DNA of 64,000 nt from an uncultured Planctomycetota bacterium (GTDB lineage: Bacteria; Planctomycetota; Planctomycetia; Gemmatales; Gemmataceae), in the NCBI GenBank assembly GCA_963849325.1, contig CAWKHF010000012.1, positions 1,184,001 to 1,248,000 on the forward strand. Reading direction: 5' to 3'. The first letter of the stretch is position 1; each line of letters begins with the position of its first letter. A model generated the notes under the pieces. It had not been told where the DNA came from and made no database searches. It saw only the letters and a program-made list of their open reading frames with translations. Shown piece by piece: positions 3,678 through 49,499 of this stretch. The position numbers and the translations under genes are program-made.

Positions 3678-5863
3678 ATGCAAGATCCCCTGCAAGCTGC
3701 TATCCGGCAGCACCAACTCGGCCGCCTCCACGACGCGGGGCGGATGTACCAGGGCATCCTCGCCCACGATCCCAACCACTCCGACGCCCTGCACCTGCTC
3801 GGCGTGGTCGCCCACCAGCTCGGCCAGAACCAACCGGCGGCCGAGCTGATCGTCCGCGCCATCTCTCTGCAACCCGGCGTGGCCGCCTATTACGCCAACC
3901 TCGCCGAGGTTTGGCGGGCGCTGGGACAGACCGACCGGGCCATCGACGCTTGCCGCACCGCCCTGCGCTTGCAGCCGGAATATCCCGAAGCCGCCAACAA
4001 TCTCGGCCTGGCCCTGCTCGCCGCCGGCGACATCGCGGCCGCGATCGAACAGTTCCGGACGGCCCTCCGTCTTCGGCCGAATTTCGCCATGGTCTACAAC
4101 AACCTCGGCAACGCCCTGCGCCTCCAGGGCGACACGGCCGGGGCCATCGACCATTTCCGCCGAGCCGTCGAACTCGATTCCAACATCGTCGAGGCGCACA
4201 GCAATCTCGGCCAGCTGCTGTGCGAACGCAACGAACTGAAGGAGGCACTGGAGCATTGCGAGGAGGCCGTGCGGCTGCGGCCAAACGCTCCCGAGGCGCT
4301 GAGCAACCTCGGCAACGTCCTCCGTTCCCTGGGCCGGCTCGACGAGGCCAAGGGTTATTACGCCGAGTCGCTACGGATCAATCCGAACATCGGCATGGTC
4401 TACAACAACATGGCCCAGGCCCTTCAGGAGGAAGGGAAGTTCGACGAGGCCCTGGTGTGGTACGAGCAAGCCTTGCAGCGTGAGCCGAACACCGCGCACA
4501 TCCACTGCAACTTGGCCAGCGCCCTGGAAGAAAAGGAGTGTCACGAGGACGCCGTCGCTCGCTACGAGATGGCGCTGCGTTTGGACCCCAACTTCGCCGA
4601 GGCCCACAACGGCATCGGCGCCGTTCGCCACGAGCAGGGCCGCGACGAGGAGGCCCGCGTACACTACGAGGCGGCCGTGCGTCTCAAGCCGGACTTCGCC
4701 GGTGCCCACGCCAGCCTCGGCCATCTTCTGGAGGAACTGAACGATCTGAAGGGCGCGGAGGCGTGTTTCCGCTCCGCCCTCGGTCACGACGCCCACAATG
4801 CCGGCGCGCTGGGACAGCTGGCGATCCTGCTTCGCGGCAAGCTGCCCGAGGACGACCTTGCCGCCTTGCGGCGCCTGCTGGCCGAGCCGGAGACGCCGGA
4901 GGGCAAACGCGGCGTGCTGCACTTCGGTCTCGCTCAGGTCCTCGACGCCCGCGGCGAGTACGCCGAGGCCGGTGAGCACCTACGCCAGGCCAACGCGATC
5001 AGTCTCGCCGGCGCCCGCAAGCGCGGCAAGGACTACGATCCCGCCAGTCACACCCAGTTCGTCAGCGACATGATGGCGACCTGCACGCCGGAGTTCTTCG
5101 AGCGCCTGCGCGGACAGGGATTGGAGAGCGAGCGGCCGGTGTTCATCGTCGGCCTGCCGCGATCGGGAACGACGCTGGTGGAGCAGGTGCTGGCCAGTCA
5201 TGCCCAGGTGTTCGGCGCCGGCGAGCTGCGCTTCGCTCGGGAAGACTTCGACTCGCTTCCCCAGGTGCTGAGCAGCGAGGATAGTCCCCTGGCGTGCATG
5301 ACGCGGCTCGACGGCGATGCCCTACGGCTCATCGGTCAGCGCCACCTGGACCGCTTGCAAACCCTGGACGCCACGGCCACGCGCGTCGTGGATAAAATGC
5401 CGGATAATTATCTCTATCTCGGCTTCCTGTCCGTCCTATTCCCGCGCGCAAGTTCATCCATTGTCGCCGCGACCTGCGCGACGTGGCGGTATCGTGCTGG
5501 ATGACCAACTTCCGCCACATCCGCTGGGCCAACGACCCCGAGCACATCGCCTCGCGCTTCCAGGAGTACCGGCGCCTGACGGAATACTGGCGGGCCACCC
5601 TGCCGGTCCCGGTGCTGGACGTCTACTACGAGGACACGGTCGCCGATCTGGAGAGTGTCGCCCGCCGCTTGCTGGACTGGTGCGGTCTGGAGTGGGATCC
5701 GGCTTGCCTGTCGTTCTACGAGACGAAGCGTCCGGTGCGCACGGCCAGCGTGACGCAGGTGCGCCAGCCCGTGTACAAGCGCTCGGTCGCGCGCTGGAAA
5801 CACTACGAACCGGCGCTAGGTTCACTGTTCGCGCAGCTCGCACCGGATGAGAATAAAAATTGA
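3678..5863 (+). CDS. TPR-repeat sulfotransferase (Sulfotransfer_3-like); one frameshift near 5447
   Basis: Multiple TPRs (AHSNLG, ALSNLGNVL, VYNNLG); 5'-PSB motif PVFIVGLPRSGTTLVEQVLASH; DKMPDNY; continues in the other frame as FIHCRRDLRDVAVSCW...RTASVTQVRQPVYKRSVARWKHY. Confidence 0.9.
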
Positions 5864-5948
5864 ACCACGGATAACACGGATAACACGGATAAAAACAGAA
5901 AAGAGAGTATTCTTGTTTTTATCCGTGTTATCCGTGTTATCCGTGGTT
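5863..5948. repeat. Inverted tandem 9-mer hairpin: (ACACGGATA)x3 - spacer - (TATCCGTGT)x3
   Basis: aaccacggataacacggataacacggataaaaaca ... tgtttttatccgtgttatccgtgttatccgtggtt. Confidence 0.95.
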
Positions 5949-5967
5949 TAAAATTTGGGACGACCGC

Positions 5968-6667
5968 GTGAGTCAGCCATCTTTTGAGATACTGTACGAA
6001 GACAATCACTGCTTGGCCGTTTCCAAGTCGAGCGGCGCTCTGAGCACACACTACCAGGGCCGCGAGCAGACACTGGACCGCGCCGTCAAGGAATACCTCA
6101 AGGACAAGTACCACAAGCCCGGCAACGTCTTCCTCGGCGTGGTGCATCGCCTCGACCGCCCCGTCTCCGGCGTGCTGTTGTTCGCGCGCACCAGCAAGGC
6201 GGCGGCCCGCCTGGCCCAGCAATTCCGCGAGGGCACCATCGAGAAAGTCTACTGGGCCGTCGTCGAGGGCGAGGTCGGACAACAGGCCGGCTCGCTGGAG
6301 GACTGGTTGCGCAAAAACGAGTCGGCCGGCCGCGTCGAAATCGTCGAGCCGCGCGAGAAAGGTGCTCGTCAAGCCCTGCTGCACTACCACCGCCGAGCCG
6401 TCCACGGAGGGCTGACCTGGTTGGAAGTGCGGCCGCAGACCGGCCGTACTCATCAGCTCCGCGTGCAGCTGGCGCACCACGGCCACCCGATCTACGGCGA
6501 TGCCAAGTACGGGGCCGTCCACACCTTCGGCCGGGCCATCGGTCTGCACGCCCGCGACCCTGACCTTTCTGCATCCGATCCGCTACGATCCGGTCACGCT
6601 GACGGCCGACGTGCCGCGCGCCTGGCGCGGCCGCTTCGCCTACCTGATGCGGGAGGGTCCGGCATGA
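5968..6667 (+). CDS. RluA-family 23S rRNA pseudouridine synthase; frameshift near 6555
   Basis: VVHRLDRPVSGVLLFA catalytic motif, KVYWAVV, TGRTHQLRVQLA, HPIYGD.KYG, LHA; C-terminus TFLHPIRYDPVTLTADVP in the alternative frame to TGA at 6665-6667. Confidence 0.9.
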
Positions 6668-7672
6668 GCGCCGCCCTGCTCGACACGATCCGCGACCTCA
6701 TCCAGGAGGACGTGGGCAACCGAGGGCTGGCCCGTGATCCCAGCGACAATCTCTTCACGGCCTGCCGTCCGGATTTCGCCACCGCCTGCGCGAGCATCGC
6801 CGCCGCGCCGAAACCGGCCCTCGCCGTCGTCACCGGCTTTCCGATCGTGGGCGCTGTCCCGCTTTGCGGCGAGACGGACGGCCCGCTCGGAGCGGTCTTC
6901 CTGGCCCGCGCACTGACGCCCCTGGGGATGAAAATTACGCTGTTGACGGATACGTTTTGTCAGCGAGCGCCTCGAAGCGGGCCTAGACGCTTGTGGATTG
7001 CGCAGCACCGTCCTCGTCGTAACCTTGCCTCCTTCAGGGGCGAGGGTCTCGTCAGAAAAAGGGACTAGGGGCGAGGGACTAGGGACTAGGGAAGAAACCT
7101 TTTCCCTATTCCCTAGTCCCTATTCCCTATTCCCTTCTTCTGACGAGACCCTAGTTCCTAAGCTGACGCACCTGGTCGCGCTGGAGCGAGTGGGACCGGG
7201 CCGAGATGGCCGCTGCCGCAACATGCGCGGTCTCGACATTACCGAGAATACAGCTCCCGCTTCTTGGTTATTCGAGGATGCCGCTCGCCGGACGCCGCCT
7301 GTTACGACCATCGGTATCGGCGATGGCGGCAACGAGATCGGCATGGGCAAAATCCCCGAGACGGTCATCGACCGCAACATCCCCAACGGAGGGCAGATCG
7401 CCTGCCGCGTTCCGACCGATCACCTGATCGTCGCCGGCGTCAGCAACTGGGGAGCTTACGCCCTGGCCGCCGGCGTGGCCGTCCTGCGCGGGCGGCGACT
7501 GCCCGCCGCGCTGTTCGATGTCGAGCGCGAGCGCGATTTGCTGCGTATCATGGTCGAGGAAGGCCCCTTGGTGGATGGCGTCACGGCCCGGGCGACCGTC
7601 TCGGTGGATGGTTTGTCGTTTCCGGATTACGCCAGGCCACTGCGGCTGCTGGCGGAGGTGGTGGGGGCATAA
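6664..7672 (+). CDS. DUF4392 (D-glutamate cyclase-like C-terminal domain) protein; frameshift near 6965; contains an in-frame palindromic insertion
   Basis: ATG overlaps the rluA stop (ATGA). Motifs QEDVGNRGL, VVTGFP, ETDGPLGA, ALERVGP, TIGIGDGGNEIGMG, AGVSNWGAYAL, SVDGL. Confidence 0.8.
7043..7152. repeat. Inverted tandem 7-mer hairpin (GGACTAG / CTAKTCC) with a 15-bp outer stem, inside the DUF4392 CDS
   Basis: agggtctcgtcagaa-aaagggactaggggcgagggactagggactagggaa ... ttccctattccctagtccctattccctattccc-ttcttctgacgagaccct. Confidence 0.9.
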
Positions 7673-7674
7673 GC

Positions 7675-8466
7675 ATGGGCGACCTGCGACTTGCGAGCGG
7701 AGCGGAGGTGCGGCGGCAGGCCCGTGCCGGGGAACTGACCGGGCCGACGCCCGGCCTGGCCGCCGGCTACGTGCAAGCAAACCTTGTCGTGGTGCCGCGC
7801 GACATCGCCTTCGATTTCTTGCTGTTCTGCCAGCGCAACCCGCGCCCTGTCCGCTGCTGGACGTCACCGATCCGGGCTGTCCCGAGCCGCGCCAGCGCCG
7901 CATCCGGCGCCGATGTCCGCAGGGACATCCCGCGTTACTGCGTTTACCGTCATGGTGAATTGATCGACGAGCCGGCCGACCTGTTCGCCTGGTGGCGCGA
8001 TGACCTGGTGGCGTTCCTGCTCGGCTGCTCCTTCACCTTCGAGAACGCCCTATTGAAAGCGGGTCTTCCGGTTCGCCACATCGAGCAGGGCTGCAATGTG
8101 CCGATGTATCGCACCAACATCGCCTGCCATCCGGCGGGTATCTTCGCCGGGCCGATGGTCGTGTCGATGCGGCCGTTGACGCCGACTCAGGCGGAGGCGG
8201 CAACCGTCATCTGTCAGCGCTTTCCGCAGGCACATGGGGCGCCGCTTCACGCCGGCGATCCCTCCGTCCTCGGCATCCGCGACATCCAGCGACCCGACTT
8301 CGGCGACGCGGTCGAGGTCCGCTCCGGGGAAATTCCCGTCTTCTGGGCCTGCGGCGTGACGCCGCAAGCCGTGGCCATGCAGGCCAGGCCGCCGCTGTTG
8401 CTGACGCACAAGCCCGGACACATGTTCGTCACCGATCTGCGCGATAGGGATCTGGAAACCGCGTAA
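7675..8466 (+). CDS. DUF1445 putative hydro-lyase (D-glutamate cyclase family); compensating frameshifts at about 7845-7895
   Basis: GYVQANLVV, FLLFCQRNPRPCPLL, D.PRY, VAFLLGCSFTFE, NVPMYRTN, GPMVVSMRP, HGAP.H.GDP, PDFGD, PVFWACGVTPQ, THKPGHMFVTD. Confidence 0.9.
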   Translation: MGDLRLASGAEVRRQARAGELTGPTPGLAAGYVQANLVVVPRDIAFDFLLFCQRNPRPVRCWTSPIRAVPSRASAASGADVRRDIPRYCVYRHGELIDEPADLFAWWRDDLVAFLLGCSFTFENALLKAGLPVRHIEQGCNVPMYRTNIACHPAGIFAGPMVVSMRPLTPTQAEAATVICQRFPQAHGAPLHAGDPSVLGIRDIQRPDFGDAVEVRSGEIPVFWACGVTPQAVAMQARPPLLLTHKPGHMFVTDLRDRDLETA

Positions 8467-9973
8467 CATTCGGCCGCGCTCCCTGTGTAGGCAGCGGCGT
8501 TTGCGGATGCAGACTGTCGTAGCACAGCCACAGACCCAGGGCGGTGATGAGCGCGGCGCTGACCAGGGGCAGAGCGCGCACCACGGTTCGCACGCGCGGC
8601 CCGCCGCCCCAGCGGGCCGCGGCCCAGTTGCGCGCCCAGACGACGCCGACGCCGAGACCGACGAGGACGCCGGCCAGTCCCGCGCTGAACGCCAGCAACA
8701 GCGGCACTCCCAGCCATAAACGCTGCGCCGAGATCGCCAGGCACAGCAGGATGATCGCATCCCAGCACGGCACCAATCCGCCGCGCATCCCCAACAGCAC
8801 CAGATGCCACCAGCGCACCGACGTCCCGTCCGCCGGCAGGGAGATGTGCGTGTGATCGTGGTCGTGGTCATGATCGTGGTGATGGGGATGCGAATGGCCG
8901 CCGAGGTGAAAATGATCGGCGCGGCCGGACAGCCGGCGGAACAGTAGCCACAGACCCAGGCCGGCGATGAACAGGCCGCCGATCAGCCCCTGAACGTAGT
9001 ACATCAGGTTGGCGGCCGCCGGCGAAATCAGGAAGACGACGGCCAGGACGAAGACGGCGCCGGTGTGCGTTAGCGTGGTCATCAGACCCAGCAGCAAGGC
9101 GTGCCAGACCGTGCCGTGTTCGCCGACGAGGTACGCCGCCACCAGCGTTTTGCCGTGGCCGGGTGTCAAGGCGTGGACGGCGCCGAAGCCGGCGGCCAGG
9201 AGAAGCAGCACGGCGAGGCCGCGTCGCGTATCGAAGAGCAAGTGCAACAGCTTCTGGGGATGGCCGTCCTCTTCCTCCGCCGGGACGACGGTGCTTTCCG
9301 GCTGTTCCGCCTGTTTCTCCTCGCCCTTCAGTGGAGTGGTGTCGTCGAGGACGAAGGTGGCCGACGCCTGACGGAGACGATCGGAGTCACCCGGTTTGCG
9401 TTCCAGGGGCGGCCGATCCAGCAGGGCCGCGTCCGGCGCCGATGTGCTTTGCAATGTCACGCCCGGCCCTGTCGCCAGCGTCAGCCGCAGCTGGCTGAAA
9501 TCGTCCCGATCGTAGTTGGTGTCGCGGAAGGAGAACGTGTGCGTCGCGCCGCGCTCCGGCTGCCACGGGGCGGTAAACGTGAAGTCGTAGCGTAGATGGT
9601 CCTTCACCGTATCGTCGTGTCGGCCAGCGCTGCGACCGAAGACGAGGGGTTTACCGTCCAGGCGGACATCGAGGTTCTTGGCGAGGAGGGGTCCGAAGTG
9701 CCGGACGAACGCCTGATGAAACGCCCTCTCACTGGTGATGCGGGGGAATTCGCCCGGCGTCAGTTCGGAGCGGGCCAGGTCCAACTCGGCGCAGCCGGCG
9801 TCCACTTCGAGCTGATACTTCACCACCACGGCGGCCGGCGTCAGCTTCACCTCGATTGTCCGGTCGTGGTTGTCCTTGGGCACCGGATGGGCAAAAGCCG
9901 ATTCACCGCGGAGAACGCAGAGAGCGCAGAGAAGAATGGAAAAGAGAAGAAGGAATCGCCGGAAGGTAGCCAT
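8429..9973 (-). CDS. RcnA/HoxN/NixA-family Ni/Co transporter with an N-terminal exported domain
   Basis: HALTPGHGKTLVAAYLVG, TLTHTGAVF, His-rich loop HSHPHHHDHDHDHDHTH, GGLVPCWDAIILL; signal peptide ending AFA-HP. Confidence 0.85.
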   Translation of the reverse strand: MATFRRFLLLFSILLCALCVLRGESAFAHPVPKDNHDRTIEVKLTPAAVVVKYQLEVDAGCAELDLARSELTPGEFPRITSERAFHQAFVRHFGPLLAKNLDVRLDGKPLVFGRSAGRHDDTVKDHLRYDFTFTAPWQPERGATHTFSFRDTNYDRDDFSQLRLTLATGPGVTLQSTSAPDAALLDRPPLERKPGDSDRLRQASATFVLDDTTPLKGEEKQAEQPESTVVPAEEEDGHPQKLLHLLFDTRRGLAVLLLLAAGFGAVHALTPGHGKTLVAAYLVGEHGTVWHALLLGLMTTLTHTGAVFVLAVVFLISPAAANLMYYVQGLIGGLFIAGLGLWLLFRRLSGRADHFHLGGHSHPHHHDHDHDHDHTHISLPADGTSVRWWHLVLLGMRGGLVPCWDAIILLCLAISAQRLWLGVPLLLAFSAGLAGVLVGLGVGVVWARNWAAARWGGGPRVRTVVRALPLVSAALITALGLWLCYDSLHPQTPLPTQGARPNVTRFPDPYRADR

Positions 9974-10027
9974 GTGTCTGCTTGGTTCTGTTTTCTCTCT
10001 GCGTTCTCCGCGTTCTCCGCGGTGAAT
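9901..10027. repeat. Inverted tandem 9-mer hairpin (GAGAACGCR-type) spanning the start codon of the Ni/Co transporter
   Basis: attcaccgcggagaacgcagagagcgcagaga ... tctctgcgttctccgcgttctccgcggtgaat. Confidence 0.9.
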
Positions 10028-10030
10028 TCT

Positions 10031-11171
10031 TTATTTTTTCGGCTTGCAGTAGCCCAGCGTCATAAGGGCGTAGCCGGTGACGATGTTCGGATCCGCCTCC
10101 ATCCAGTGGGCGTTGTCGTTGCGCCAGCTGCCGTCGTCGCGCTGCCGTCGGGCCAGCGCCGCCGTGAGGTCGGCGCGCCAGTCGTGTTTCTTGCCGCCGG
10201 CGTCCTCGACCTCATCGCGTCCGAGCACATCGAGGCACTTGGCCATCGTGTGATAGTAATAATACAGGCCCCAGTGGCCGCGCACCTCGGGCATGCCGGG
10301 GTTGGCGTCCACCGTGTAGTTCTTGCGGACCCACTCCTACGCCTTTTGGATGCGCGGATCGTCCTTGGAGACGCCGCAGTAGATCAGGCTCTTGATGCCG
10401 GCGTAGGTCATGCTGCCGTAGCCGGGCAGGCCGCCGCCGTCGTTGGGCTTGTCCTGCGTCTTGGTCTGGCCGCCGGCGGCAGGGCTGTAGATGAAACTGC
10501 CGTCGTTGATCTTGCCGGCCCATTTCTGATCGTTGTGCTCGCCTTTGAGGTTCTGACAACGGCTGACGAAGATCGCAGCTTTCTTGAAAGCCGGGTCGTT
10601 CTTGGGAATGCCGGCCGCCACCAGGGCGTCGAGGAAGAACTGCGTGTTCGACAGGTCCGGCCGCTGATTTGCTGTCGTAGCCGGCGCCGCCGTAGTAATC
10701 GTCGTCGCGTTTGCGGCCCTCGCCCTCGTCCCATTGCAAGCCGCGCAGGAACTTGGCGGCGTCAGCGACGACGGCCTTGTAACTGTCGCGTTTGGCGCTG
10801 ACCAGGGCCAGCACGTTGACGCAGGTGACGTAGTTCTGCAACTGCACGCGCGGATCTTTGCCGGCGATGTGGCCGGCCCTGGGGTTGATGAGCGATTCGA
10901 TGTACTTCAAGCCGCGCTCCACCATCGGATCGTCCGGGCCGACCTTGCCTGTCTGGAGCACGCCGGTCAGCACGATGCCGGTGGTGCCGATCTGCTGTTT
11001 GCCGCCCCAGCTGCCGTCCGCGTTCTGCGTCCGGCGCAGGTAGGCGACAGCCTTGTCCACGGTATCGTTCCACTGCTTCGGGTCCGGCCCCGCCTTCGCC
11101 GCGGGCGACAACAGCAGCAGGGCGAGCAGTCCCCATGACAACTTTCCCCAGGTACGCGCATGGCTAATCAT
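10031..11171 (-). CDS. Secreted prenyltransferase/squalene-oxidase repeat protein; frameshifts near 10660 and 10335
   Basis: Signal peptide; [60 protein letters not shown] repeats spread over three ORF fragments. Confidence 0.8.
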
Positions 11172-11222
11172 CGAGCTATCCCCCTTGTTGACGGCCATCC
11201 GTATTGTAGACGAGCCGGCGGA

Positions 11223-11280
11223 CAAAAAAGAACAGCCCGCCGCGCCGGCAAGGGCGAACCCTTGCCCGCGTAGCGGGCTG
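11223..11280 (-). terminator. Rho-independent terminator after groES
   Basis: Minus strand reads cagcccgc-tacgcgggcaagggttcgcccttgccggcgcg-gcgggctg followed by ttcttttttg. Confidence 0.75.
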
Positions 11281-12290: not shown

Positions 12291-12298
12291 GAGAAGAC

Positions 12299-13410: not shown

Positions 13411-13429
13411 TGACAAGATGACAAGGTGA
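13411..13429. repeat. Solo arm of an 8-mer tandem repeat (TGACAAGR)
   Basis: tgacaagatgacaaggtga in the intergenic region. Confidence 0.4.
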
Positions 13430-17809: not shown

Positions 17810-19152
17810 GCGGCCTTTCCGGGTTGTATGCGCGGAGGCGGCGGAGCGGCGGCTTGCGGCAGGGCGCCGGCCCGCGCCGTCAGCAGGTGGATGGCTGCCG
17901 TCAGACTATGCACCGCCTGCTCGAACGTGCCGGCGCCGGCCAGCGCCGCCAGGTTCTGCTGCAAGCCCGCCTGCAAGTGCAGCAGGTGCTTCTCACCCTG
18001 CTGCAAGCCGCCCAGAGCCGCCACCTGCGCCGCCAGATGCTCTCGCCGACCCGCGCCAGCGCCGTCTGCTGATCGCGGCCGTAGTCGCGCACCACGCTGG
18101 CCAATGCTCCCAGCTGCTCGAACAGCCGGGCGCTCTGCTCGAGGGACTGTTTTTCCAGGCCGATCAAGCAGTTGGGAATGCGTTTGCAGCGTGCCCTTCA
18201 GCGCCGCCTCCAGGGCGCCGGCCATCTGCTCCTGCTGCCGGCCGGCGGCTTCCGCCGCCCGCCGCTGGTTCTCCGTCAGCGCCCGCGCCCACACGTCGGC
18301 CTGCTGCTCCACGAGCTGCCCGGTGGCGTCGAGCAAGACCTGCGTGTTCTGCCGCAGCGCTTCGACGAACGGGCCGTTGTCGCCGGAGATGCGCTGGAAG
18401 CGGTGCGCCAGTCTGGCGCTCGACCTCGTGATCGACGGCTTCGAGAATGCCCTGCTCGCGCCGTTCGACGAGGAAGCTGCAAAACATGGTAATCATGGTC
18501 AGACTGAGGGCGAGGGCGGTGGCGTCGAAGGCGTAGGACAGGCCGTCGGTGACCTGGCTCATGTTCTTTTCGAGCACTTCCGGCGTCGCCCCGGAGATGG
18601 CGTCGGTGATGCCGAGCACGGTGCCGAGGAAGCCGAGGATGGGGATGGCCCAGGTGATGAAGCGCGTCAGGGCGTAACTGCCTTCCAGCACGACGGCGTC
18701 GCTGTCGAGCAGGGCGCGCATCTGGTCGTCCAGCTCGGCGGCGGAGCCGCGCTGGCAGAGGAAATCGAGGATGGCCCGGATACGCTGGACGAGGAAGGTG
18801 TTTTGCAGTCGTTGCGGCAGGCGGCGCAGTCCGGTCAAGAGGTTGGCCGCTTCGCCGAGTGGGACGGCCCGGCCGTCCCAGGGCGGCAGCACGTCCGCAC
18901 CGGAACGCCCGTTGTTCGACCAAACTCCGCAGCCACTTCGCCCCCAGGGCGCTGACGGCGCAGCAGAACAGGATCAGCTCGACGCCCTCGACGGGGCGTT
19001 CGATGTAGCGGAACAGGAAAGTGTGGCGCAGCGGTCCCTTGTGGAAGAGGAACAGCAAGACGACGGCCAGCGGGCAAGCCGACGACGAAGGCGGCGAGGT
19101 TGGCGCTGGGGCGGCGAACAGTATCGGCGGAGACCGATGGGGAGGATTTCAT
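17806..19152 (-). CDS. MotA/TolQ/ExbB proton-channel family protein with a long helical C-terminal tail; several frameshifts
   Basis: ITWAIPILGFLGTVLGITDAI and GLSYAFDATALALSLTMITMF TM motifs; ATGA overlap with the downstream gene at 17806-17809. Confidence 0.85.
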
Positions 19153-30106: not shown

Positions 30107-30652
30107 TCAGTACGACATCGGCAGCGTGGACGTGCTCTTCAACGCGATCGGTCCCACCAGGTACAGTTCGGGAAACCAGTTATAGGTGACGGTCACGCTC
30201 ACGGTGTTGCCGGTGGGCTGCTCGTAATTCTGGCTGGCGTCCGAGGGCATGTTGCTGCTGTTCCACACGACCTGGCAGCTCAGCTGCGTCGGGTCGAGGG
30301 CGGTGGCATAAGGGAGAACGGCGTTGTTGTAAATGTCCTGGGACGTGGCCGCCGGGTTGCCCGTGTCCAGCTGATACTGCCCGCCATGCACCGAGGCGTA
30401 GCGCGCCCCCTCGCGAGCCAGCATGGCGATCTGCTGGTAGCGGAACACGCCGTAACCGCCCACGACCGTAGCCAGAATGAGGAAAAACAGGACCGGCAGC
30501 ACCACGACAGCTTCGGTCGCGGCGAAACCGTCCCGTCTCTTCAAAGCCCCTAACTTTTTGGGCGAACGGCCGGCGTCAGCCGGCTGGTAGAGGCCGCAAC
30601 CAGCCGGCTGACGCCGGCCGTTCGCCTTTCTGCCTTGGGAGTAATGAATCAT
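30107..30652 (-). CDS. TadE/TadG-family pilin-like protein
   Basis: RRDG|FAATEAVVVLPVLFFLI (E+5), AREGARYASVHG. Confidence 0.85.
   Translation of the reverse strand: MIHYSQGRKANGRRQPAGCGLYQPADAGRSPKKLGALKRRDGFAATEAVVVLPVLFFLILATVVGGYGVFRYQQIAMLAREGARYASVHGGQYQLDTGNPAATSQDIYNNAVLPYATALDPTQLSCQVVWNSSNMPSDASQNYEQPTGNTVSVTVTYNWFPELYLVGPIALKSTSTLPMSY
30561..30626. repeat. Perfect 28-bp inverted repeat (REPIN-like doublet) inside the TadE leader
   Basis: ggcgaacggccggcgtcagccggctggt-agaggccgca-accagccggctgacgccggccgttcgcc. Confidence 0.95.
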
Positions 30653-32697: not shown

Positions 32698-32806
32698 TGA
32701 AAACGGAAAAGTAAAAAGTGAAAAATGAAAAATGACCGAGACTCGAAGTCGGCGGAGAAGTGGCTTCTCCAATTTTCATTTTTTACTTTTCACTTTTCCG
32801 TTTTCA
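32698..32806. repeat. Inverted tandem 7-mer hairpin (AAAAKTR type)
   Basis: tgaaaacggaaaagtaaaaagtgaaaaatgaaaaatg ... attttcattttttacttttcacttttccgttttca. Confidence 0.92.
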
Positions 32807-35259: not shown

Positions 35260-35267
35260 AAATAATT

Positions 35268-35342
35268 AACCACGGATGAACACAGATGAACACGGATAAA
35301 AGAACAAAAAAAATCTGTGTTTATCTGTGTTCATCTGTGGTT
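35268..35342. repeat. Inverted tandem 10-mer hairpin (CACRGATRAA)x3
   Basis: aaccacggatgaacacagatgaacacggat ... atctgtgtttatctgtgttcatctgtggtt. Confidence 0.93.
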
Positions 35343-35362
35343 CATTCTTGGAGGCGATACTC

Positions 35363-36335: not shown

Positions 36336-36399
36336 GGCGAGCGGGGGCGTCAGCCCCCTGTTGCTTCTTCCAACAGGGGGCTGACGCCCCCCGCTCGCC
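36336..36399. repeat. REPIN-like inverted repeat, same family as 30561-30626
   Basis: ggcgagcgggggcgtcagccccctgttg-cttcttc-caacagggggctgacgccccccgctcgcc. Confidence 0.93.
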
Positions 36400-36435: not shown

Positions 36436-38430
36436 GTGGAACGTGCCACCTTCTTCGATCGCTTGCGACAAAATCGCCTCCTGACGGAAGCGGAGCTGGA
36501 CCAGGCGGCGAGCCGGTTCGGCGACACGGCCGCGACGCAAGCCATCGCCGACGGACTCGTCCGCGACGGCGTGCTGACCTCGTTCCAGGTGCGACAGGTC
36601 TACGCCGGCGACACGCAGCCGTTGACGCTGGGGCAGTATCGACTGCTGGACGAACTGGGCCGTGGCGGCATGGGCCGTGTCTACAAGGCCCTGCACACCA
36701 TCATGGGCCGAGTGGTCGCCATCAAGGTCATTTCCCCGGAGCTGGTGCAGAACCCGGTCGCCGTCGAGTGGTTCCGCCGCGAAGTGCGCGCCAGCACTCA
36801 CCTGGTCCATCCCAACATCGTGATGGCCTACGACGCCAACGAGGCGGATGGGCTGCACTTTTTGGTCATGGAGTATGTCCAGGGCGTGACGCTGGACGCC
36901 CTGGTGCGGCAGCACGGCCCGCTGCCGGTGGACAACGCCTGCGCCCTGATGCGTCAGGCGGCCCTGGGCTTGCAACATGCTCACGACAAGGGCATGGTTC
37001 ACCGCGACATCAAGCCGGGCAACCTGCTCATCCCCCGGCCGGACGGCGAACAGCCGCCGGACGTGCTGGTCAAGATCGTGGACTTCGGCCTGGCTCGGCT
37101 GCAAGGCAAGACCCAGGGCGAGACCATCGCCCTGCGCGGCGAGACCGGCGTGCTGGGCACGCCCGATTACATCTCGCCGGAACAGTCGCGCGACATCCAC
37201 TCCGCCGACATCCGCTCCGACCTCTACAGCCTCGGCTGCGCCTTCTATTTCGCCCTGGCCGGCCGGGTGCCGTTCCCGGGCGAGTCGGCGATGGAGAAGC
37301 TGGTCAAGCACCTGACCGAGGAGCCGCAGCCGTTGGAGCGACGTGGGCCCCGACGTGCCGCCGGCCCTGGCCGCCGTCGTGCGTCGCCTGATGGCCAAGG
37401 CCCCCGCCGACCGCTACCAGACGCCCGCCGAGTTGGTGCAGGCGCTGGACGCCTGGCTCGCGGACTGCCCCCGGGGCGTGCCCTCGACCAAGACGTCTTG
37501 CCGCCCCTTGTGGCTGTCACCGCCGACGCAAGCCGCCGTCGGTCCCATCGCTCCATCCGAACCGACGGCGCACACTCGGCTGCTCGATAATGTCGCGTTG
37601 TTCGGAGCGGCTCGGGAGCCGGAGCCGTCCGGCCCGAGCCTGCTCGAACCGCTGTGGAAGCACTCTCCGGACGAGGCGCGCCGCGCGAAACGCACGACAC
37701 GATGGCACTGTCGCGCCCGGAAGACACGGAAGTGGTCACGACCGAGGCGACTGCCCTGGGGAAAGGACCGCCGTCCGCTTCGGCGAGCGATGCCGACCCC
37801 ACCGCCCCGGAGGTGGACGCCTCAGCCAAGTCGCCCTCGGTCCTCGATCCCGCCGAGCAGAAGAAACTCGACCTGGTCCTGTGGCGCCTATGGCGGCGGT
37901 GGACGGGCCTCGTTGGGATCATCGTCAAGGGCTGCGGCCCCTCGGGCGTCAATGGCGACCGTTATCGGACCATCTACAATCTTCTGTTGCAAGCCTGCCG
38001 CACCGCCGTCGACACCGCCCCTACGCCGCAGGGCCGCGCCTTCTATCAAGAGCTGCTCTCGATCGTCCAGCCGTGGCTCAACCTCAAGACGTTCATTCAC
38101 ACCGAAGAGCACATGCTCGAAGCGCTGTGGAAGCGTTGCAAGCAGGCCGAGTTGGAGTTGAACAACGGCAAGGTGCCCTGGACGATCGGACAGGTCATCG
38201 GTCTGATCCTGTTGACCCTGAGTCCCGTTGGCCTGGTGGTGTGGTACGTTCATTATGGCCGCCTCGGCCTGGCGGCCCTAGCGCGGTCGTTCAACTGGGA
38301 TGGCTCCACGACCTCGCTGCGTTCTCTTTGGGCGTTCGTGACGGCACATCCCGCCCTGTTCATCGGGGTCCTCTTCCCCCTCGTCATCATCTTCTCCATC
38401 TACCTGCTGGCGCGCACGCCACGCACTTGA
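36436..38430 (+). CDS. Hanks-type Ser/Thr protein kinase with C-terminal TM helices; frameshifts at about 37340-37680
   Basis: LGRGGMGRVY, VAIK, HPNIV, HRDIKPGN, DFG, GTPDYISPEQ, DLYSLG; two hydrophobic segments at the C-terminus. Confidence 0.9.
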
Positions 38431-38455
38431 GAGGCACGAACCCAATGTCCTTTTG

Positions 38456-38482
38456 ACCACGGATAACACGGATAACACGGAT
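38456..38482. repeat. Solo arm of the ACACGGATA 9-mer element
   Basis: accacggataacacggataacacggat is identical to the left arm at 5864-5890; no inverted partner nearby. Confidence 0.85.
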
Positions 38483-38521
38483 CAAACACCAGAAGCGTTC
38501 TAGCGGGAAGGGAATCGGACC

Positions 38522-44388: not shown

Positions 44389-45197
44389 ATGAGCGCCTAC
44401 CTGGGGGCGATCTGGGACTGCCGCTTTTTTTGGCTGTCGCTGGTCAAGATGGACCTGCGTTCGCGCTACCGAGGCTCGATTCTCGGCATCGGCTGGTCGT
44501 TGCTGCAATCCCATCGCCATGACGACGATACTCTGTGTCGTCTTCCGTATTTGGCTGAAGATGGATTTGCACTGGTACGCCCCGTTCGTCTTCATCGGCA
44601 TGACCTTCTGGGGCTTCTTCAGCGCCATCACGCTGCAAGGTTGCGGCTGCTTCTTCCAGGGAGAATCGTACATCCGTCAGTTCCCGGCCCCGATGGCGAT
44701 CTACCCGTTGCGTACCGTCCTCGGCGCCGGGCTTTCATTTCTGCATCGGCCTGGTGCTGGCCCTTGTGTTGGCCCTGTGTGTGCGGCCGACCGTTTCGGC
44801 GTCCGTCGCAACCCAGCTGTTCGCCTTGCTGAGCTTCTGCCCAGTTTGGCGCTCCTGCTCCTGTTCGGCTGGAGCGTGGCCATCCTGTTCGGGCTGCTCA
44901 ACGTCCGTTTCCGCGACACGCGCCATCTGGCGGAGGTCGGTTTGCAGGGCTTTTTTACCTGACGCCGATCATGTTCGACTTCAATTCGGAGGACATCAAA
45001 GGGCGTCGCCTGGCTGATGGTGTTTCAGTGCAACCCGCTCGTTCCCTTCCTGGATTTGCTTGCGTCAGCCCATCCTCAACGGACAGGTGCCGAGCCTGAT
45101 GACGTACGCGACCGCCGCCGCGATCGTGCTCCTCCTCGCCGGCGCGGCGATCCTGACGCTGAAAATCGAAGAACGACGGTTGATCTTCTATCTGTGA
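44389..45197 (+). CDS. wzm: ABC-2 polysaccharide export permease Wzm; several frameshifts
   Basis: DLRSRYRGSILGIGWSLL, NVRFRDTRHL, FYLTPI, NPL, ERRLIFYL. Confidence 0.85.
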
Positions 45198-45216
45198 CAC
45201 GGCGTTTAAGCTCGCG

Positions 45217-45259
45217 AGCCCGCAGCTTGCGGGGTAGCTTTCCCTCGCACGCTGCGGCT
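45217..45259. repeat. Degenerate REP-like hairpin at the wzm/wzt junction
   Basis: agcccgcagcttgcgggg-tagcttt-ccctcgcacgctgcggct. Confidence 0.55.
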
Positions 45260-45279
45260 AGGACGGTGGGACATCGTCA

Positions 45280-46038
45280 ATGGCGCGAATCGAACTGGAG
45301 CACGTTCATCTGACCTTCCGGGTGCGGCAGGAGCGAGGAGTTCGCCTCAAGGACTTCATCCTCAAGCGTATGTTCCTGCCGTCGAAAAACCCGATCATGG
45401 AAGTGCGGGCGCTGCAAGACATCAACCTGCGCATCGAGAAGGGCGACCGCGTCGGCTTCATCGGCCACAACGGCGCCGGCAAGAGCACCATGCTCAAGCT
45501 GCTGGCCGGCATCTACACGCCAACCAGCGGCCGACGCAACGTCCAGGGCCGCATCTCGTCGCTGTTCGACATCGCCCTGGGCTTCGAGGGCGAGGCCAGC
45601 GGCTGGGAGAACATCGCCTACCGCAGTTTCCTGCAAGGCGAGACGCCGAGCAGCGTCCGCGCCAAGAAGCAGGCCATCGCCGACTTCAGCGAGCTGGGCG
45701 ATTTCCTCAACATGCCGGTGCGCTACTATTCGGCTGGTATGATGGTACGATTGGCCTTCTCGATCGCCACGGCCATCGATCCCGAGATCCTGCTGGTGGA
45801 CGAGGTGCTCAGCGTCGGCGATCTGGCGTTTCAGCACAAAGCGCGCGAGCGCATGCGCGAGATGATGGCCAAGGCGCACCTGATGGTCCTTGTCACGCAC
45901 GATCTGGAATCGCTGCATCAGATGTGCAACCGGGCCGTGTGGATGGATCACGGCCGCATGGTCATGACGGGACCGTGCAGTGAAGTGGTGGCCGCGTATC
46001 GCTCGTCGGTGCAGACGCAGCCGGCCACAGCCGCCTAG
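45280..46038 (+). CDS. wzt: ABC polysaccharide export ATPase Wzt (no C-terminal carbohydrate-binding domain)
   Basis: GHNGAGKSTMLK, YSAGMMVRLAFS, ILLVDEVLSVGD, VTHD. Confidence 0.93.
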   Translation: MARIELEHVHLTFRVRQERGVRLKDFILKRMFLPSKNPIMEVRALQDINLRIEKGDRVGFIGHNGAGKSTMLKLLAGIYTPTSGRRNVQGRISSLFDIALGFEGEASGWENIAYRSFLQGETPSSVRAKKQAIADFSELGDFLNMPVRYYSAGMMVRLAFSIATAIDPEILLVDEVLSVGDLAFQHKARERMREMMAKAHLMVLVTHDLESLHQMCNRAVWMDHGRMVMTGPCSEVVAAYRSSVQTQPATAA

Positions 46039-46064
46039 CGGAAATCCGGATGTGAGGATTTCTC

Positions 46065-47072
46065 GTGAACGCTCCTCTTCGTTTCCAGTCGTACCTGCGT
46101 CCGATGGTCTGGGGCGGTCGGCAGCTCGGCGAGGTGCTGGGCAAAGCGCTGCCCAACGGCGGAACGTACGGCGAAGCCTGGGAGATCAGCGATCATCCTT
46201 CGCACGCCAGTGTCGTCGCCGACGGACCCCGCAAAGGGCAGACGCTCCGGCATCTGATGGAACACGAACCGGCCGCCTTGCTGGGCAAGGCCGCCGCGGA
46301 ACATTCGCGTTTTCCCTGGCTGGTCAAGCTGCTGGACGCCTGGGACTGGTTGTCGGTGCAGGTGCATCCGAACGAGGCCGATGTGCTGCGCTTGTGGCCG
46401 GGAGAAGGCAGCAAAACGGAAGCGTGGTTCGTTCTAGCGGCGGCGCCGACCAGCCGTGTGTACGCGGGTCTTTTGCCGGGCGTCGATGAGGCGCGGCTGC
46501 GTGCGGCCTTACGCGAGGGCACGGTCGGCGATTGTCTGCACCAGTTCCAGCCGCGCCCCGGCGATTGCGTCTTCCTGCCGGCCGGCACCGTTCACGCCGT
46601 CGGCGGCGGCGTCCTCATGGCCGAAGTGCAGCAGACCAGCGACGCCACTTTCCGCCTGTTCGACTGGGACCGCCGCGATGCGAGAGGCCAGACCCGACAA
46701 CTTCACATCGAGGAAGCCCTGGCCTGCATCGACTGGAGCAGCGGTCCTGTCCATCCGGTGCGTGCCGAGGGCTTTCCGGGCGTCGCCGACAGCCGCGGGG
46801 AGAGGGCCGGCAGCCGACGGCAGCGACTGGTCCGCTGCCGTTACTTCACCCTGGAGTATCTGCGCCAGAACGAGCCATTCACCTGTGGCGGCATCGGTCG
46901 CTTGCAGGTGTTGCTCGTGCTGCATGGACGCGGCCGGCTCTGGACTGGCGAGGGAGTATGGGAGTTGGCCCCCGGCGATACCCTGCTCTTGCCCGCCGCG
47001 CTCGACGCTTTGACCTGCCATCCCGAGGGCGACCTGGGGATGCTTCTGTCCACTTTGCCCGCCAATTCGTAG
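46065..47072 (+). CDS. manA: Type I mannose-6-phosphate isomerase
   Basis: VWGG, GEAWEIS, FPWLVKLLDA..WLSVQVHP, KTEAW, PAGTVHA, EVQQTSDATFRLFDW. Confidence 0.9.
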   Translation: MNAPLRFQSYLRPMVWGGRQLGEVLGKALPNGGTYGEAWEISDHPSHASVVADGPRKGQTLRHLMEHEPAALLGKAAAEHSRFPWLVKLLDAWDWLSVQVHPNEADVLRLWPGEGSKTEAWFVLAAAPTSRVYAGLLPGVDEARLRAALREGTVGDCLHQFQPRPGDCVFLPAGTVHAVGGGVLMAEVQQTSDATFRLFDWDRRDARGQTRQLHIEEALACIDWSSGPVHPVRAEGFPGVADSRGERAGSRRQRLVRCRYFTLEYLRQNEPFTCGGIGRLQVLLVLHGRGRLWTGEGVWELAPGDTLLLPAALDALTCHPEGDLGMLLSTLPANS

Positions 47073-47092
47073 GACTTATCCAGGAATCACTT

Positions 47093-47159
47093 CGTTTAGC
47101 CGCGACGCGCAGCGGAGCGCGGGTCTGTCCCGCGCTCCGCTGCGCGTCGCGGCTAAACG
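47093..47159. repeat. Perfect 31-bp inverted repeat (REPIN-like)
   Basis: cgtttagccgcgacgcgcagcggagcgcggg-tctgt-cccgcgctccgctgcgcgtcgcggctaaacg. Confidence 0.95.
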
Positions 47160-47203
47160 GGGAATGGGTTGTTGGACGCCTCCATAATAACGAAGACATC
47201 TCC

Positions 47204-47680
47204 ATGCAATTTCACGCGGGCCACATCGACGGCGTCATCTGGAAAGCGCTGACGAAGTATCACGATGCGCGCGGCTGGCTGTGCGAGCTGTTCCGCCACG
47301 ACGAACTGCCCGCCGAGTTTCATCCGGTCATGGCTTACATTTCGCTGACCGAGACCCGCGTGGTGCGCGGGCCACACGAACACGTCGAGCAGAGCGATTG
47401 TTTCGCTTTTCTGGGACCGTCGAACTTCAAGGTCTATCTCTGGGACAACCGCCAGGATTCGCCGACTTACCAGGTCCGACAGACGGAAGTCGTCGGCGCC
47501 GATCAGCCGATGCTGCTCATCGTCCCGCCGGGCGTCGTCCATGCTTACCAGAACGTCGGCGGCGAGCCGGGCCTGGTGTTCAACTGCCCCAATCGTCTCT
47601 ACAAGGGACCGGGACGCAAAGAGCCGATCGATGAGATCCGCCACGAGGACCAGGCGGACAGCCCCTATCGCCTCGATTGA
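47204..47680 (+). CDS. RmlC-like cupin (dTDP-4-dehydrorhamnose 3,5-epimerase family)
   Basis: HDARGWLCELFR, VRGPHEH..QSD, LWDNR..SPTY, VPPGVVHAY. Confidence 0.85.
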   Translation: MQFHAGHIDGVIWKALTKYHDARGWLCELFRHDELPAEFHPVMAYISLTETRVVRGPHEHVEQSDCFAFLGPSNFKVYLWDNRQDSPTYQVRQTEVVGADQPMLLIVPPGVVHAYQNVGGEPGLVFNCPNRLYKGPGRKEPIDEIRHEDQADSPYRLD

Positions 47681-47728
47681 CATGCCCCTGTCAGCCCGCC
47701 ATGATGGCGTGGATCGACTCAATCCGCC

Positions 47729-48887
<1,159 letters not shown>

Positions 48888-48932
48888 GAAAGACCGGGGC
48901 CGGGACGACGAGAAGATGAGGGGAACGGGGCC

Positions 48933-49421
48933 ATGAGTGCGACGAACCATCCCGATTGGGATCTGGATGAGTTGAAGACGAAGATCCGCGAGCAGGCCGC
49001 CGAGATGCGCGAACGCGCGGCGGCGGCGGTCCCGCTGGCGGCGCGCGGCTCGTCGGCGTGGTCGTTCAACTGGCTGGAGGTCAAGAGTCGGCTCAAGATC
49101 GGGGCCGGACTCGCTCAGATGGGCGGCATGCCGCTGTTGCCGCGCTTCCGCGGCGTCAAGCGGCAGGTCGCCCTCTTTGCCTCCCGCGCGGTCCTGTACC
49201 TGACGCGCTTCCTCACCAGCCGGCAGACCGATTTCAATGTCTGCCTGCTCGACGCCCTGCGCGAAATGGGCGAAGCGCTGCACGGGGTCGAGACGCGCGT
49301 GGTGCAGCAGCAGGAGCAAATCCGCCTGCTGGAAGCGTGCGTCAACCAGTTGCAGCTGCGCGTCTCCTCCGGGAGCGTCCTTCCGGCCCGCCGTTGTGAA
49401 ATCGAGCGCAAGGCGTCCTGA
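48933..49421 (+). CDS. Hypothetical protein with a C-terminal coiled coil
   Basis: ATG with a purine-rich RBS; RQTDFN followed by heptad-like LHGVETRVVQQQEQIRLLEACVNQL. Confidence 0.7.
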   Translation: MSATNHPDWDLDELKTKIREQAAEMRERAAAAVPLAARGSSAWSFNWLEVKSRLKIGAGLAQMGGMPLLPRFRGVKRQVALFASRAVLYLTRFLTSRQTDFNVCLLDALREMGEALHGVETRVVQQQEQIRLLEACVNQLQLRVSSGSVLPARRCEIERKAS

Positions 49422-49426
49422 CATCG

Positions 49427-49499
49427 AAGTTCTGAGTTCTGAGTTCTGAGTTCTGAGTGCCGTCTTCACTCAGAACTCAGAACTCAGAACTCAGAACTT
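49427..49499. repeat. Perfect inverted tandem 7-mer hairpin (GTTCTGA)x4 / (TCAGAAC)x4
   Basis: aagttctgagttctgagttctgagttctgagtg-ccgtctt-cactcagaactcagaactcagaactcagaactt. Confidence 0.97.

Follow-up and report, generated by a model that had tools for sequence, protein, structure and literature searches.

The DNA analyzed here is a stretch of 64,000 nucleotides from an uncultured Gemmataceae bacterium (contig CAWKHF010000012.1), called the window throughout. It has a G+C content of 65.5% and carries a Tad pilus operon and DUF1571, a planctomycete marker. Distributed among its genes are six hairpins, H1 to H6, and one unpaired arm. A preliminary description of the window had reported six elements built as a unit array, a spacer, and the complementary array, and all six were found where that description placed them. 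H1 (plus strand, arms 5855-5897 and 5914-5956) has 43-nt arms that are 93% complementary, with 3 copies of CACGGATAA, a loop of 16-26 nt, and 3 copies of TTATCCGTG. H2 (plus strand, 7036-7093 and 7102-7159; 58-nt arms, 84% complementary) has an outer non-repeat stem, GGGTCTCGTCAGAA, and inner heptamers GGGACTA/GGGGCGA that pair with TCCCTAT/TCCCTAG. H3 is on the minus strand (9901-9932 and 9996-10027); its 32-nt arms, 94% complementary, are made of the 9-mers CGCGGAGAA/CGCAGAGAG with the ends TTCACC...GGTGAA and are separated by a 63-nt spacer. The 37-nt arms of H4 (plus strand, 32698-32734 and 32770-32806) are 92% complementary and consist of GAAAAGT/GAAAAAT heptamers around a 35-nt spacer that contains two small inner hairpins. 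H5 (plus strand, 35261-35297 and 35313-35349) also has 37-nt arms, 86% complementary, with 2.7 copies of the 10-mer CACRGATGAA and the complement. The arms of H6 (plus strand, 49427-49459 and 49467-49499) are 33 nt long and 100% complementary, with 4.4 copies of GTTCTGA, a 7-nt loop, and 4.4 copies of TCAGAAC.

Tandem Repeats Finder identified both arms of every element as unit arrays, with left and right copy numbers of 3 and 3 for H1, 4.7 and 5.4 for H2, 5.4 and 4.9 for H4, 2.7 and 2.7 for H5, and 4.4 and 4.4 for H6. When folded as RNA, H1 to H6 had energies of -63.9, -95.2, -66.8, -52.8, -47.7, and -60.0 kcal/mol, respectively, and Z-scores of -7.7 to -15.4; for each element, 0 of 200 shuffles folded equally well. 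The stems are 30-58 bp long with a GC content of 33-53%. A detector for the pattern (unit)n-spacer-rc(unit)n, rc being the reverse complement, returned 6 loci in the window, compared to a mean of 0.38 and a maximum of 3 in 100 dinucleotide-preserving shuffles of the window. The hairpins are real and far above chance expectation.

The units had been described as mostly unrelated, which was overstated for H1, H3, H5, and the solo arm but held for the heptamers of H2, H4, and H6, which differ from one another. The core CACRGAT is common to H1, H5, and the solo arm. In an ungapped alignment over 35 positions, the H3 arm shared 22 with the H1 arm and 25 with the arm of a Bacteroides cassette carrying a GxxExxY gene (locus L141; loci outside the window are cited by L number). 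Because of the core shared by H1 and H5 and the alignments of the H3 arm, H1, H3, and H5 can be grouped as one 9/10-nt superfamily. The solo arm (TTGACCACGGATAACACGGATAACACGGATCAAACA, plus strand, 38453-38491) starts 23 nt past a stop codon at 38430. At 38456-38484 it is equal to the left arm of H1, a match that takes in TTGA(A)CC in the flank and AAAACA on the loop side, and it has no partner arm; this copy had been reported previously and is real. A second proposed solo arm, a possible remnant at 13411-13429 (plus strand, TGACAAGA TGACAAGG TGA), amounts to 2.4 copies of an 8-mer and taken alone is at chance level, but its unit, TGACAAGR, builds a complete hairpin at 8395-8460 of L043, a Planctomycetota contig. 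At least 5 different units stand side by side within the window.

Placement at gene junctions or inside genes, as originally proposed, was evident for all of the hairpins: H1, H4, H5, and H6 occupy junctions, H2 is intragenic, and H3 overlaps a gene start. The four at junctions start 0-9 nt past the upstream stop codon and stop just short of the ribosome-binding site of the following gene, which is co-directional. Upstream of H1 is an open reading frame (ORF) for the C-terminus of a sulfotransferase, the TGA stop of which (5861-5863) lies inside the outer stem of H1, and downstream is a pseudouridine-synthase gene that starts at 5968. H4 and H5 are both within the Tad operon. H4 is between a cpaE-like gene (stop 32689) and a cpaF-like ATPase gene (start 32839), and H5 is between a tadB-like gene (stop 35259) and a tadC-like gene, directly 5' of the GGAGG ribosome-binding site of the latter. 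H6 is flanked upstream by a 162-aa ORF (stop 49421) and downstream by a glycosyltransferase gene (ATG 49517). The H6 unit, GTTCTGA, differs by one base from the last seven bases of the upstream gene including its stop codon (GTCCTGA, 49415-49421), a likeness that could be chance or a hint that the target site gave rise to the unit. On the minus strand, the 5' arm of H3 follows the stop codon of the upstream gene (10031), and the ATG of the downstream gene (9973) is inside the spacer.

Rho-independent terminators, which have a short GC-rich stem with a U-run right behind it, were considered and rejected. A terminator scan of positions 5000-11000, which include H1-H3, gave 4 sites compared to 3.5 expected and touched only sub-stems of H1 and H3; the hairpins are, therefore, unexplained as terminators. 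An Rfam scan of the window at gathering thresholds gave 0 matches, and a tRNA search of the window gave 0 genes. The host-sense strand folded more stably than the antisense strand in 5 of 6 hairpins, by 0.3-3.3 kcal/mol in four and by 9.6 kcal/mol in H5, and H3 folded 10 kcal/mol better as the antisense strand. The idea that the arrays serve as frame-independent stop pads was rejected as a general rule, although it is suggestive for some units. Stop codons occur in every frame of the 5' arms of H4, H5, and H6 and in two of the three frames of those of H1 and H2; the 5' arm of H3 has none. Approximately 6 of 10 upstream arrays of the four-helix-bundle genes described below contained a stop codon when read by eye.

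The host gene of H2 (6664-7672, plus strand) is a DUF4392 / GLUCM-like_C gene, the C-terminal part of which is 84% identical to Gemmataceae homologues. Tblastn with these homologues located a frameshift near 6975 with no connection to the hairpin; past this frameshift, the reading frame is open through the whole 124-nt H2. H2 fills a variable loop between the conserved G..CG. and THLVALER motifs. Of 120 homologues, 43 were parsable for this loop, which ranged from 19 to 61 aa and was most commonly 33 aa (16 of 43). In homologue P0001, the same loop reads ADCGLRIAD...QSAIRNPQSAI, an exact translation of (GCGGATT)n and (AATCCGC)n, and in homologues P0003, P0022, and P0026, it reads KGVRNLF...EKVPDTF, the two strands of one stem. 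Homologue P0028 has a 61-aa loop insert. Because the loops hold different hairpin translations, different hairpins appear, at the protein level, to have entered the same tolerant site in related genomes. These data suggest that many "variable loops" in these planctomycete proteomes may be translated hairpins. Further loop content among P0003, P0022, P0026, and P0028, PRSAWER...HAERGNE, reads, as KGVRNLF...EKVPDTF does, like both strands of another planctomycete hairpin repeat in translation.

The host gene of H3 (8429-9973, minus strand) encodes a NicO-family nickel/cobalt transporter-like protein with the N-terminus MATFRRFLLLFSILLCALCVLRGESAFA followed by HPVPK. The 3' arm of H3 (9901-9932) encodes residues ~15-25 (LCALCVLRGES) of its signal peptide. 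Of 34 homologues found, 31 had a parsable N-terminus, and the Cys-rich motif (LCALCVLRGES, LCALCVLCGE, LCVSVV, and similar) was present in 20 of the 31; the 11 most distant homologues had ordinary signal peptides. Since the motif encoded by the arm is this common, H3 is old, fixed, and co-opted into coding sequence, and it is no recent insertion.

We scanned 185,579 species genomes for three CACRGAT units with 2-3 nt linkers. At least 124 stretches of CACGGAT-unit arrays were found across many phyla including archaea, compared to ~4 expected by chance if base frequencies are taken to be equal. Phyla among the matches listed were Verrucomicrobiota, Acidobacteriota, Planctomycetota, four proteobacterial classes, Bacteroidota, Leptospirales, and Firmicutes, and the archaea among them were Methanoperedens and Methanosarcinaceae. 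An inverted partner arm was present within 150 nt at 52 of the 124 matches listed and at 151-700 nt for 6 more. Typical ends of the CACGGAT element are AACCACGGAT...ATCCGTGGTT; the unit period was 10 nt in 146 cases and 9 nt in 104, and most arms held 3+3 units. H1, H5, and H3 have the same build, with two inverted arrays of 9-10-nt period, at least 2-3 units, and the core CACRGAT or CRCRGAG. The ends of H1 (TTGAACC...GGTTTAA), H5 (TTAACC...GGTTCAT), and H3 (given above) fit the (A/G)CC...GG(T/C) type.

Four of the 6 wide arm pairs (L007, L050, L052, and L121) enclosed an ORF of the GxxExxY family, matching TIGR04256 (E 1e-37 to 5e-40) and PF13366. In L088, the GxxExxY ORF starts inside an arm, and 78 of 120 homologues of the L121 protein begin with M-x-[TS]-[NDK], the residues that result when translation starts at an ATG in the final unit of the arm. 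Of 8 independent plasmid GxxExxY genes, 3 (L141, L142, and L143) had clear inverted 9-mer arrays (CACAGAGGA, CACAGAG, and CGCGAAG); these array classes were read by eye, the automatic classifier being noisy in AT-rich flanks. All 6 of the plasmid genes with annotated neighbors were co-oriented with those neighbors, for example between fabD and fabG. In L061, a GxxExxY gene lies between inverted AATCATG arrays, 6 kb from the CACGGAT match of that locus. Gene-carrying, or filled, versions of the elements, for which the preliminary description had proposed a search, were thus found with GxxExxY genes between CACGGAT arms, and its statement that inverted 9/10-mer arrays flank such genes is confirmed by the wide pairs and the plasmid genes (4 of 6 and 3 of 8, respectively). 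One further locus, L040 (7304-10756), on an uncultured delta proteobacterium contig, contains ~20 head-to-tail CACGGAT hairpins with a period of ~128 nt and a GxxExxY gene (8071-8460) in the middle of the array. This regular spacing recalls a CRISPR-like array, yet each unit is a whole hairpin.

In a family search with GxxExxY, 8000 of 8000 scored candidates were significant. An AlphaFold model built from 43 sequences had a pLDDT of 92.8, and its nearest folds in the PDB were Cas4 SSO0001, lambda exonuclease, LHK-Exo, and archaeal Hjc resolvases, with a TM of ~0.55. D73 and K85 (positions in the L121 ORF) did not vary, and E83 hardly did. A sequence search of solved structures with GxxExxY found nothing. 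From the model, the protein can be described no more closely than as a PD-(D/E)xK core, compact and similar to that of a DNA nuclease.

The heptamer hairpins were compared with the surroundings of 13 four-helix-bundle (S23p/Avd-like) genes, 1 in the flank of scan locus L023 and 12 from 23 plasmid tblastn records annotated "four helix bundle protein" or "S23 ribosomal protein". Ten of the 13 were between inverted heptamer arrays, the units of which differed (AGTAGGG, AGGGAAC, GGTGTAG, GTGATAG, CAGAAGG, TGAGGAG, and others). This confirms the link between inverted 7-mer arrays and four-helix-bundle (TIGR02436/bAvd-like) genes that had been stated in the preliminary description. The gene in L023 is between 3.7 copies of GGGAACA and its complement, and its protein has a relative in solved structures, XCC0516 of Xanthomonas campestris (PDB 2GSC). 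The genes lie between operon neighbors such as RNR subunit genes, cas6 and cas4, or cas10 and cmr3, a placement like that of the window hairpins. H2, H4, and H6 are of the same class, each with two inverted arrays of at least 3 heptamer units and the G-rich arm first; the G:C counts of the left arm are 17:4, 5:0, and 9:4, respectively. By eye, the C-strand unit of H2, CCCTA[T/G]T, is one position off the unit of a Nostoc edaphicum cassette, CCCTACT. Many gene-less hairpins with other units were present in the flanks of the scan loci, including four in the 20-kb L043. On plasmids of Nostoc, Anabaena, Pseudanabaena, and Picosynechococcus (L125-L136), four-helix-bundle cassettes were observed in CRISPR-Cas operons, between cas6 and cas4 twice and between cas10 and cmr3 once, and also between the genes for the two subunits of ribonucleotide reductase (RNR).

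On balance, it is likely that the six hairpins are gene-less members of a widespread, barely characterized class of insertion cassettes with inverted tandem-unit ends. Two classes would be represented. Class 1 would have 9/10-nt units with the core CACRGAT (variant CRCRGAG), ends like AACC...GGTT, and, in its full form, a gene for a GxxExxY PD-(D/E)xK nuclease of ~125 aa. Class 2 would have 7-nt, usually G-rich units that differ per copy and a full form with a four-helix-bundle (S23p/Avd-like) gene. We take H1, H3, and H5, with the solo arm, to be gene-less relatives of the GxxExxY cassettes and H2, H4, and H6 to be gene-less relatives of the four-helix-bundle cassettes. The window copies count as the "empty" form because no cargo gene lies between their arms. 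The earlier account of them as empty derivatives of cassettes is the best available reading of the window hairpins, although the empty forms may derive from full cassettes or the full from the empty.

The elements would be copied, now or formerly, as DNA to new sites, with the class 1 cargo protein acting on the iterated 7-nt cores as end-binding or cutting sites and the gene-less hairpins spreading or persisting as non-autonomous derivatives. Insertions would survive only where harmless, in the gap between a stop codon and a ribosome-binding site or in frame within a protein loop or signal peptide, and some, as H3, would later be fixed and co-opted. Inserted hairpins would be co-transcribed with the host operon and fold into their stems. 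Stems of 30-58 bp are long enough to be RNase III substrates. By analogy with the S23p-bearing 23S rRNA intervening sequence, they could act as RNase III substrates or exonuclease barriers, and within an operon transcript the hairpins probably undergo processing, or folding at the least.

Several observations bear on orientation and movement. Among hairpins with other units, the left arm had more G than C in 19 and less in 4 (p = 0.003). Among CACGGAT arm pairs, the order was "+ then -" in 56 and "- then +" in 3; that is, CACGGAT preceded ATCCGTG in 56 of 59. Because the element is an inverted repeat, this polarity, in which the arm rich in G or purines leads, holds on either strand. In L013, two gene-less copies with unrelated flanks share the same loop, reverse-complemented. 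In L022 and L031, one hairpin is nested in another, and the paired copies in L045 belong to a longer duplicated stretch. The window was also compared by blastn with the 124 loci for synteny; the matches were limited to the hairpins and two conserved genes, with no orthologous junction among them. Support for copying between sites comes from the match of H1 to the solo arm, L013, the nested hairpins, and the DUF4392 loops. As to the dedicated generating or mobilizing mechanism that had been postulated, no mobilizing enzyme or target-site duplication was found.

Not all of the data favor gene-less cassettes. The window itself has no GxxExxY gene (tblastn with 5 seeds, best E 0.11) and no four-helix-bundle gene (tblastn with 3 seeds, best E 0.41), and the spacers are 16-63 nt in H1, H3, and H5 and 5-35 nt in H2, H4, and H6. 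Wide pairs L025 and L078 lacked an ORF. The 5 other plasmid GxxExxY genes had no clear inverted arrays (one had single inverted CACGGAT units, one a one-sided CGCGGAT hairpin, two direct repeats, and one was unclear), and of the 13 four-helix-bundle genes, 2 had direct arrays and 1 had an array on one side only. A regular expression found no partner arm at 66 of the 124 loci listed, 44 loci having only ~300 nt of flank, and the matches listed, those that the scan reached first, came almost all from metagenome-assembled genomes. The check for target-site duplications that had been proposed came out negative: direct repeats of k = 2-6 at the borders of 56 CACGGAT elements were at chance, with 0 observed and 0.40 expected at k = 4. 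Copies from the same genome in L043 and in L009 share arms with unrelated loops, a pattern that simple whole-element copying does not predict. Outside the window and with L040 left out, linkers were complementary between arms in 32 of 84 comparisons (~6% by chance), and in 35 of 108 with L040 and the window included. These shares exceed the chance level but fall well short of all linkers, and pairing is thus not strictly kept outside the window. The 7-nt core is conserved more than pairing, so the core would be recognized as sequence, plausibly by a protein. Finally, the arm-like signal-peptide motif of H3, common to 20 of 31 homologues, and the 90% positional conservation of the Xanthomonas GGGAATC arrays (PMC4692102) both indicate that many copies are old and stable and not actively mobile.

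Other explanations start from the same observations. The arrays could have originated in place, with replication slippage expanding a unit in one arm of a terminator-like stem and template switching (quasi-palindrome correction) across the hairpin copying the change into the other arm, in which case their likeness would be convergent and nothing would have moved. Heptamer units that differ between loci, nearly perfect window arms with equal copy numbers in both arms, and the resemblance of the H6 unit to GTCCTGA at the upstream gene end speak for such a process; bacterial heptamer slippage is discussed in PMC4679880 and PMC4692102, and the Xanthomonas arrays keep their position between species (PMC4692102). 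We consider it quite improbable nonetheless, since a 7-nt core at 124 or more places over many phyla compared to ~4 by chance, identical arms with shared non-repeat flanks at unrelated sites, the tie of the arrays to two specific gene families, the strong polarity bias (19:4 and 56:3), and the nested insertions in L022 and L031 all argue against it. A role as host regulatory hairpins, in which stems are selected as processing sites, exonuclease barriers, attenuators, or translational gates and the cassette genes merely use similar stems, would account for the 4 of 6 hairpins that lie in co-directional operons, precisely between one gene's stop codon and the ribosome-binding site that follows, and for the extreme stability of the stems. 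It would also suit H3, which encloses the start codon of a metal transporter and has its arm motif in 20 of 31 homologues, as well as the 90% positional conservation in Xanthomonas (PMC4692102) and the cleavage of the S23p intervening sequence by RNase III (PMC4990558). However, H2 is in a coding loop where close homologues hold other hairpins or none, a half element exists as the solo arm, and the elements are found in unrelated operons of unrelated phyla. The terminator consensus scan of 5000-11000 did not call H1-H3, and there was no strand-specific RNA signal, the sense strand being better in 5 of 6, mostly by 0.3-3 kcal/mol, and H3 being reversed by 10. Host regulation as the explanation of the hairpins is doubtful.

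If only full cassettes move, the gene-less hairpins could instead be scars, sites where the gene was lost by slippage across the stem, and not copies. Long inverted repeats promote deletion of the DNA between them. Consistent with such losses, copies in L043 and L009 have identical or near-identical arms and unrelated loops, and spacers of intermediate length lack an ORF (335 nt in L025, 168 nt in L078, and ~100-110 nt in L053, L086, and L103). Such scars would not be expected to yield the two gene-less copies of L013 with the same loop reverse-complemented and unrelated flanks, or the ~20 tandem gene-less copies of L040, and the 5-16 nt loops of H2, H6, H1, and H5 keep nothing recognizable of a gene. 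We regard deletion as an unlikely source of the hairpins. A final scenario, and a very improbable one, is that the inverted arrays are synthesized at the insertion site by a repeat-adding activity with or guided by the Avd-like four-helix-bundle or GxxExxY protein. Both 3' ends of a break or junction would be extended with tandem copies of a template and then joined, giving (unit)n-filler-rc(unit)n. This would explain why the G-rich strand runs 5' to 3' towards the center on both sides (19:4 and 56:3), why arms are identical with unrelated loops in L043 and L009, why there is no target-site duplication, and why different units occupy the same site in related genomes, as in the DUF4392 loop. 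If true, it would be a telomere-like repeat-addition system in prokaryotes.

Gene-less cassettes, the reading we prefer, have partial precedents. Xanthomonas genomes contain 70-75 convergent pairs of GGGAATC heptamer arrays each, 90% of them between the same genes in two species (PMC4692102). Like those in the window, these arrays and the Nostoc GGGGAYT repeats are G-rich heptamers and mostly intergenic, and the Xanthomonas pairs are close arrays on opposite strands that are able to form stem-loops or cruciforms (PMC4692102). The H2 unit (GGGACTA/GGGAATA) is close to GGGAATC; H4 and H6 fit the Xanthomonas type of convergent intergenic heptamer pair, and H2 has the same form but is intragenic. 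The Xanthomonas work regards a single unit in each genome as a possible G-quadruplex motif (PMC4692102), whereas the window has at least 5. The accessible portion of PMC4692102 makes no link to cargo genes, 9/10-nt units, or gene-less and gene-carrying forms.

The 23S rRNA intervening sequences of Coxiella, Leptospira, and Salmonella have terminal inverted repeats that pair into a stem, with an S23p ORF in its loop (PMC4990558). The 28-bp stem is cut by RNase III, and the authors call the element selfish, with mobility unknown (PMC4990558). Like the cassettes, the intervening sequence is an insertion into a host transcript, with a long stem that ends in a loop containing a small S23p ORF. The intervening sequence differs in that it is in 23S rRNA helices and carries an ORF, and tandem-unit arms are not mentioned in the accessible portion of PMC4990558; the window elements are at junctions of mRNA operons or in coding sequence, have no ORF, and have tandem-unit arms. 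With 0 Rfam matches in the window and protein-coding operons as hosts, a 23S rRNA intervening sequence was rejected as an identity for the hairpins.

Repetitive extragenic palindromic (REP) elements and REPINs are scattered intergenic hairpin repeats in which a single small gene may be flanked by inverted copies, gene-less copies far outnumber those with the gene, and target-site duplications are lacking. Each REP family has one sequence, a single imperfect palindrome, and its gene-carrying form encodes an HUH tyrosine transposase. REP/REPIN elements with their RAYT transposases (PMC3116915) are the closest formal analogue of the window elements. The window hairpins and cassettes differ in having iterated 7-10 nt units, a PD-(D/E)xK nuclease or four-helix-bundle cargo, and a core shared across phyla. 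REP/REPIN with RAYT was ruled out as an identity by the tandem-unit arms, at least 5 units in 64 kb, and the PF13366/four-helix-bundle cargo. L006 served as an internal control, a textbook case of the REP type that differs in appearance from the cassettes, with an ORF with an HxH motif between 36-nt REP-like inverted repeats at 18507-19040, within 18507-19118; this ORF is presumably RAYT-like, a name taken from the motif only, with no family scan. L053 has at 1664-2128 an ORF of ~130 aa between 45-nt inverted repeats, which we take to be a GIY-YIG nuclease, again named from its motif only.

The miniature transposable elements with inverted repeats known as MITEs resemble the window elements as non-autonomous, gene-less sequences that have inverted repeats at their ends and a relative with a gene. 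The parent elements of MITEs are of the DDE type, and target-site duplications are present. MITEs were ruled out by the lack of a target-site duplication in 56 CACGGAT elements and because the parent cargo is not a known transposase. Cyanobacterial STRR heptamers are intergenic tandem heptamers near start codons, with the same unit in distant phyla, and in this they are like the window arrays. The same is true of the Beggiatoaceae TAACTGA repeat, a unit shared across phyla for which "no mechanism evident" was stated and which occurs as 169 direct sets and one inverted set in the Beggiatoa genome (PMC4679880). Both TAACTGA (PMC4679880) and STRR repeats are described as direct arrays, whereas the window has inverted pairs that form one stem.

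Whether the family is undescribed, as had been suggested, has a divided answer. The Xanthomonas GGGAATC pairs (PMC4692102) and the S23p intervening sequences (PMC4990558) are partial precedents, but no paper among those located, as far as their text was accessible, joins the arrays with both gene families. The literature search, which did not extend to subscription journals and database family notes, returned no description of the CACGGAT element or of the architecture with its cargo link, and no matches to the exact arm strings or to TIGR02436. In the literature accessible, GxxExxY occurred only as a domain name and PDDEXK_3 only in a superfamily survey. The elements are a new variant on known hairpin repeats with a reach across both prokaryotic domains, one 7-nt core being shared from archaea to Verrucomicrobia. 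GxxExxY/PF13366 and four-helix-bundle "S23p" are very large families of small proteins without an assigned function, and both travel in the same odd type of cassette. Gene-less hairpins are in operon junctions and even within coding sequence, and a protein loop and a portion of a signal peptide stem from them. For annotation, the consequences of the arms are spurious ORFs, gene starts called in error, and frameshifts that are only apparent; the arms would also alter the expression of polycistronic operons such as the Tad pilus genes of the window.

Four more GC-rich, near-perfect hairpins without tandem units were observed in the window at 30561-30626, 36343-36391, 47093-47159, and 53709-53775, with energies of -55 to -78 kcal/mol. 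Three of the four are just 3' of stop codons, and those at 47093 and 53709 are related to each other. A similar stem, TTAGCCGCG...CGCGGCTAA, is nested within the CACGGAT element of L022. These four look like a second hairpin family at the same kind of site. The sulfotransferase, DUF4392, NTP_transferase, and C-methyltransferase genes are split between frames at 5483-5504, ~6975, 52253, and 54262-54424, respectively, and Pfam domains run across the frame breaks; the splits are either sequencing errors of a draft assembly or real pseudogenes. From 5968 to 7068, the pseudouridine-synthase frame has no stop and continues into the beginning of the DUF4392 gene, the ATG of which (6664) is in the same frame, and the two genes appear to be fused or the synthase stop codon to be lost. 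Positions 1-3543 of the window encode a protein of more than 1180 aa, truncated by the window start, that consists for the most part of GGCGGCAAC-type 9-nt (Gly-Gly-Asn-like) repeats and includes one DUF11 domain, and most tandem-repeat calls of the first 3 kb come from this protein.

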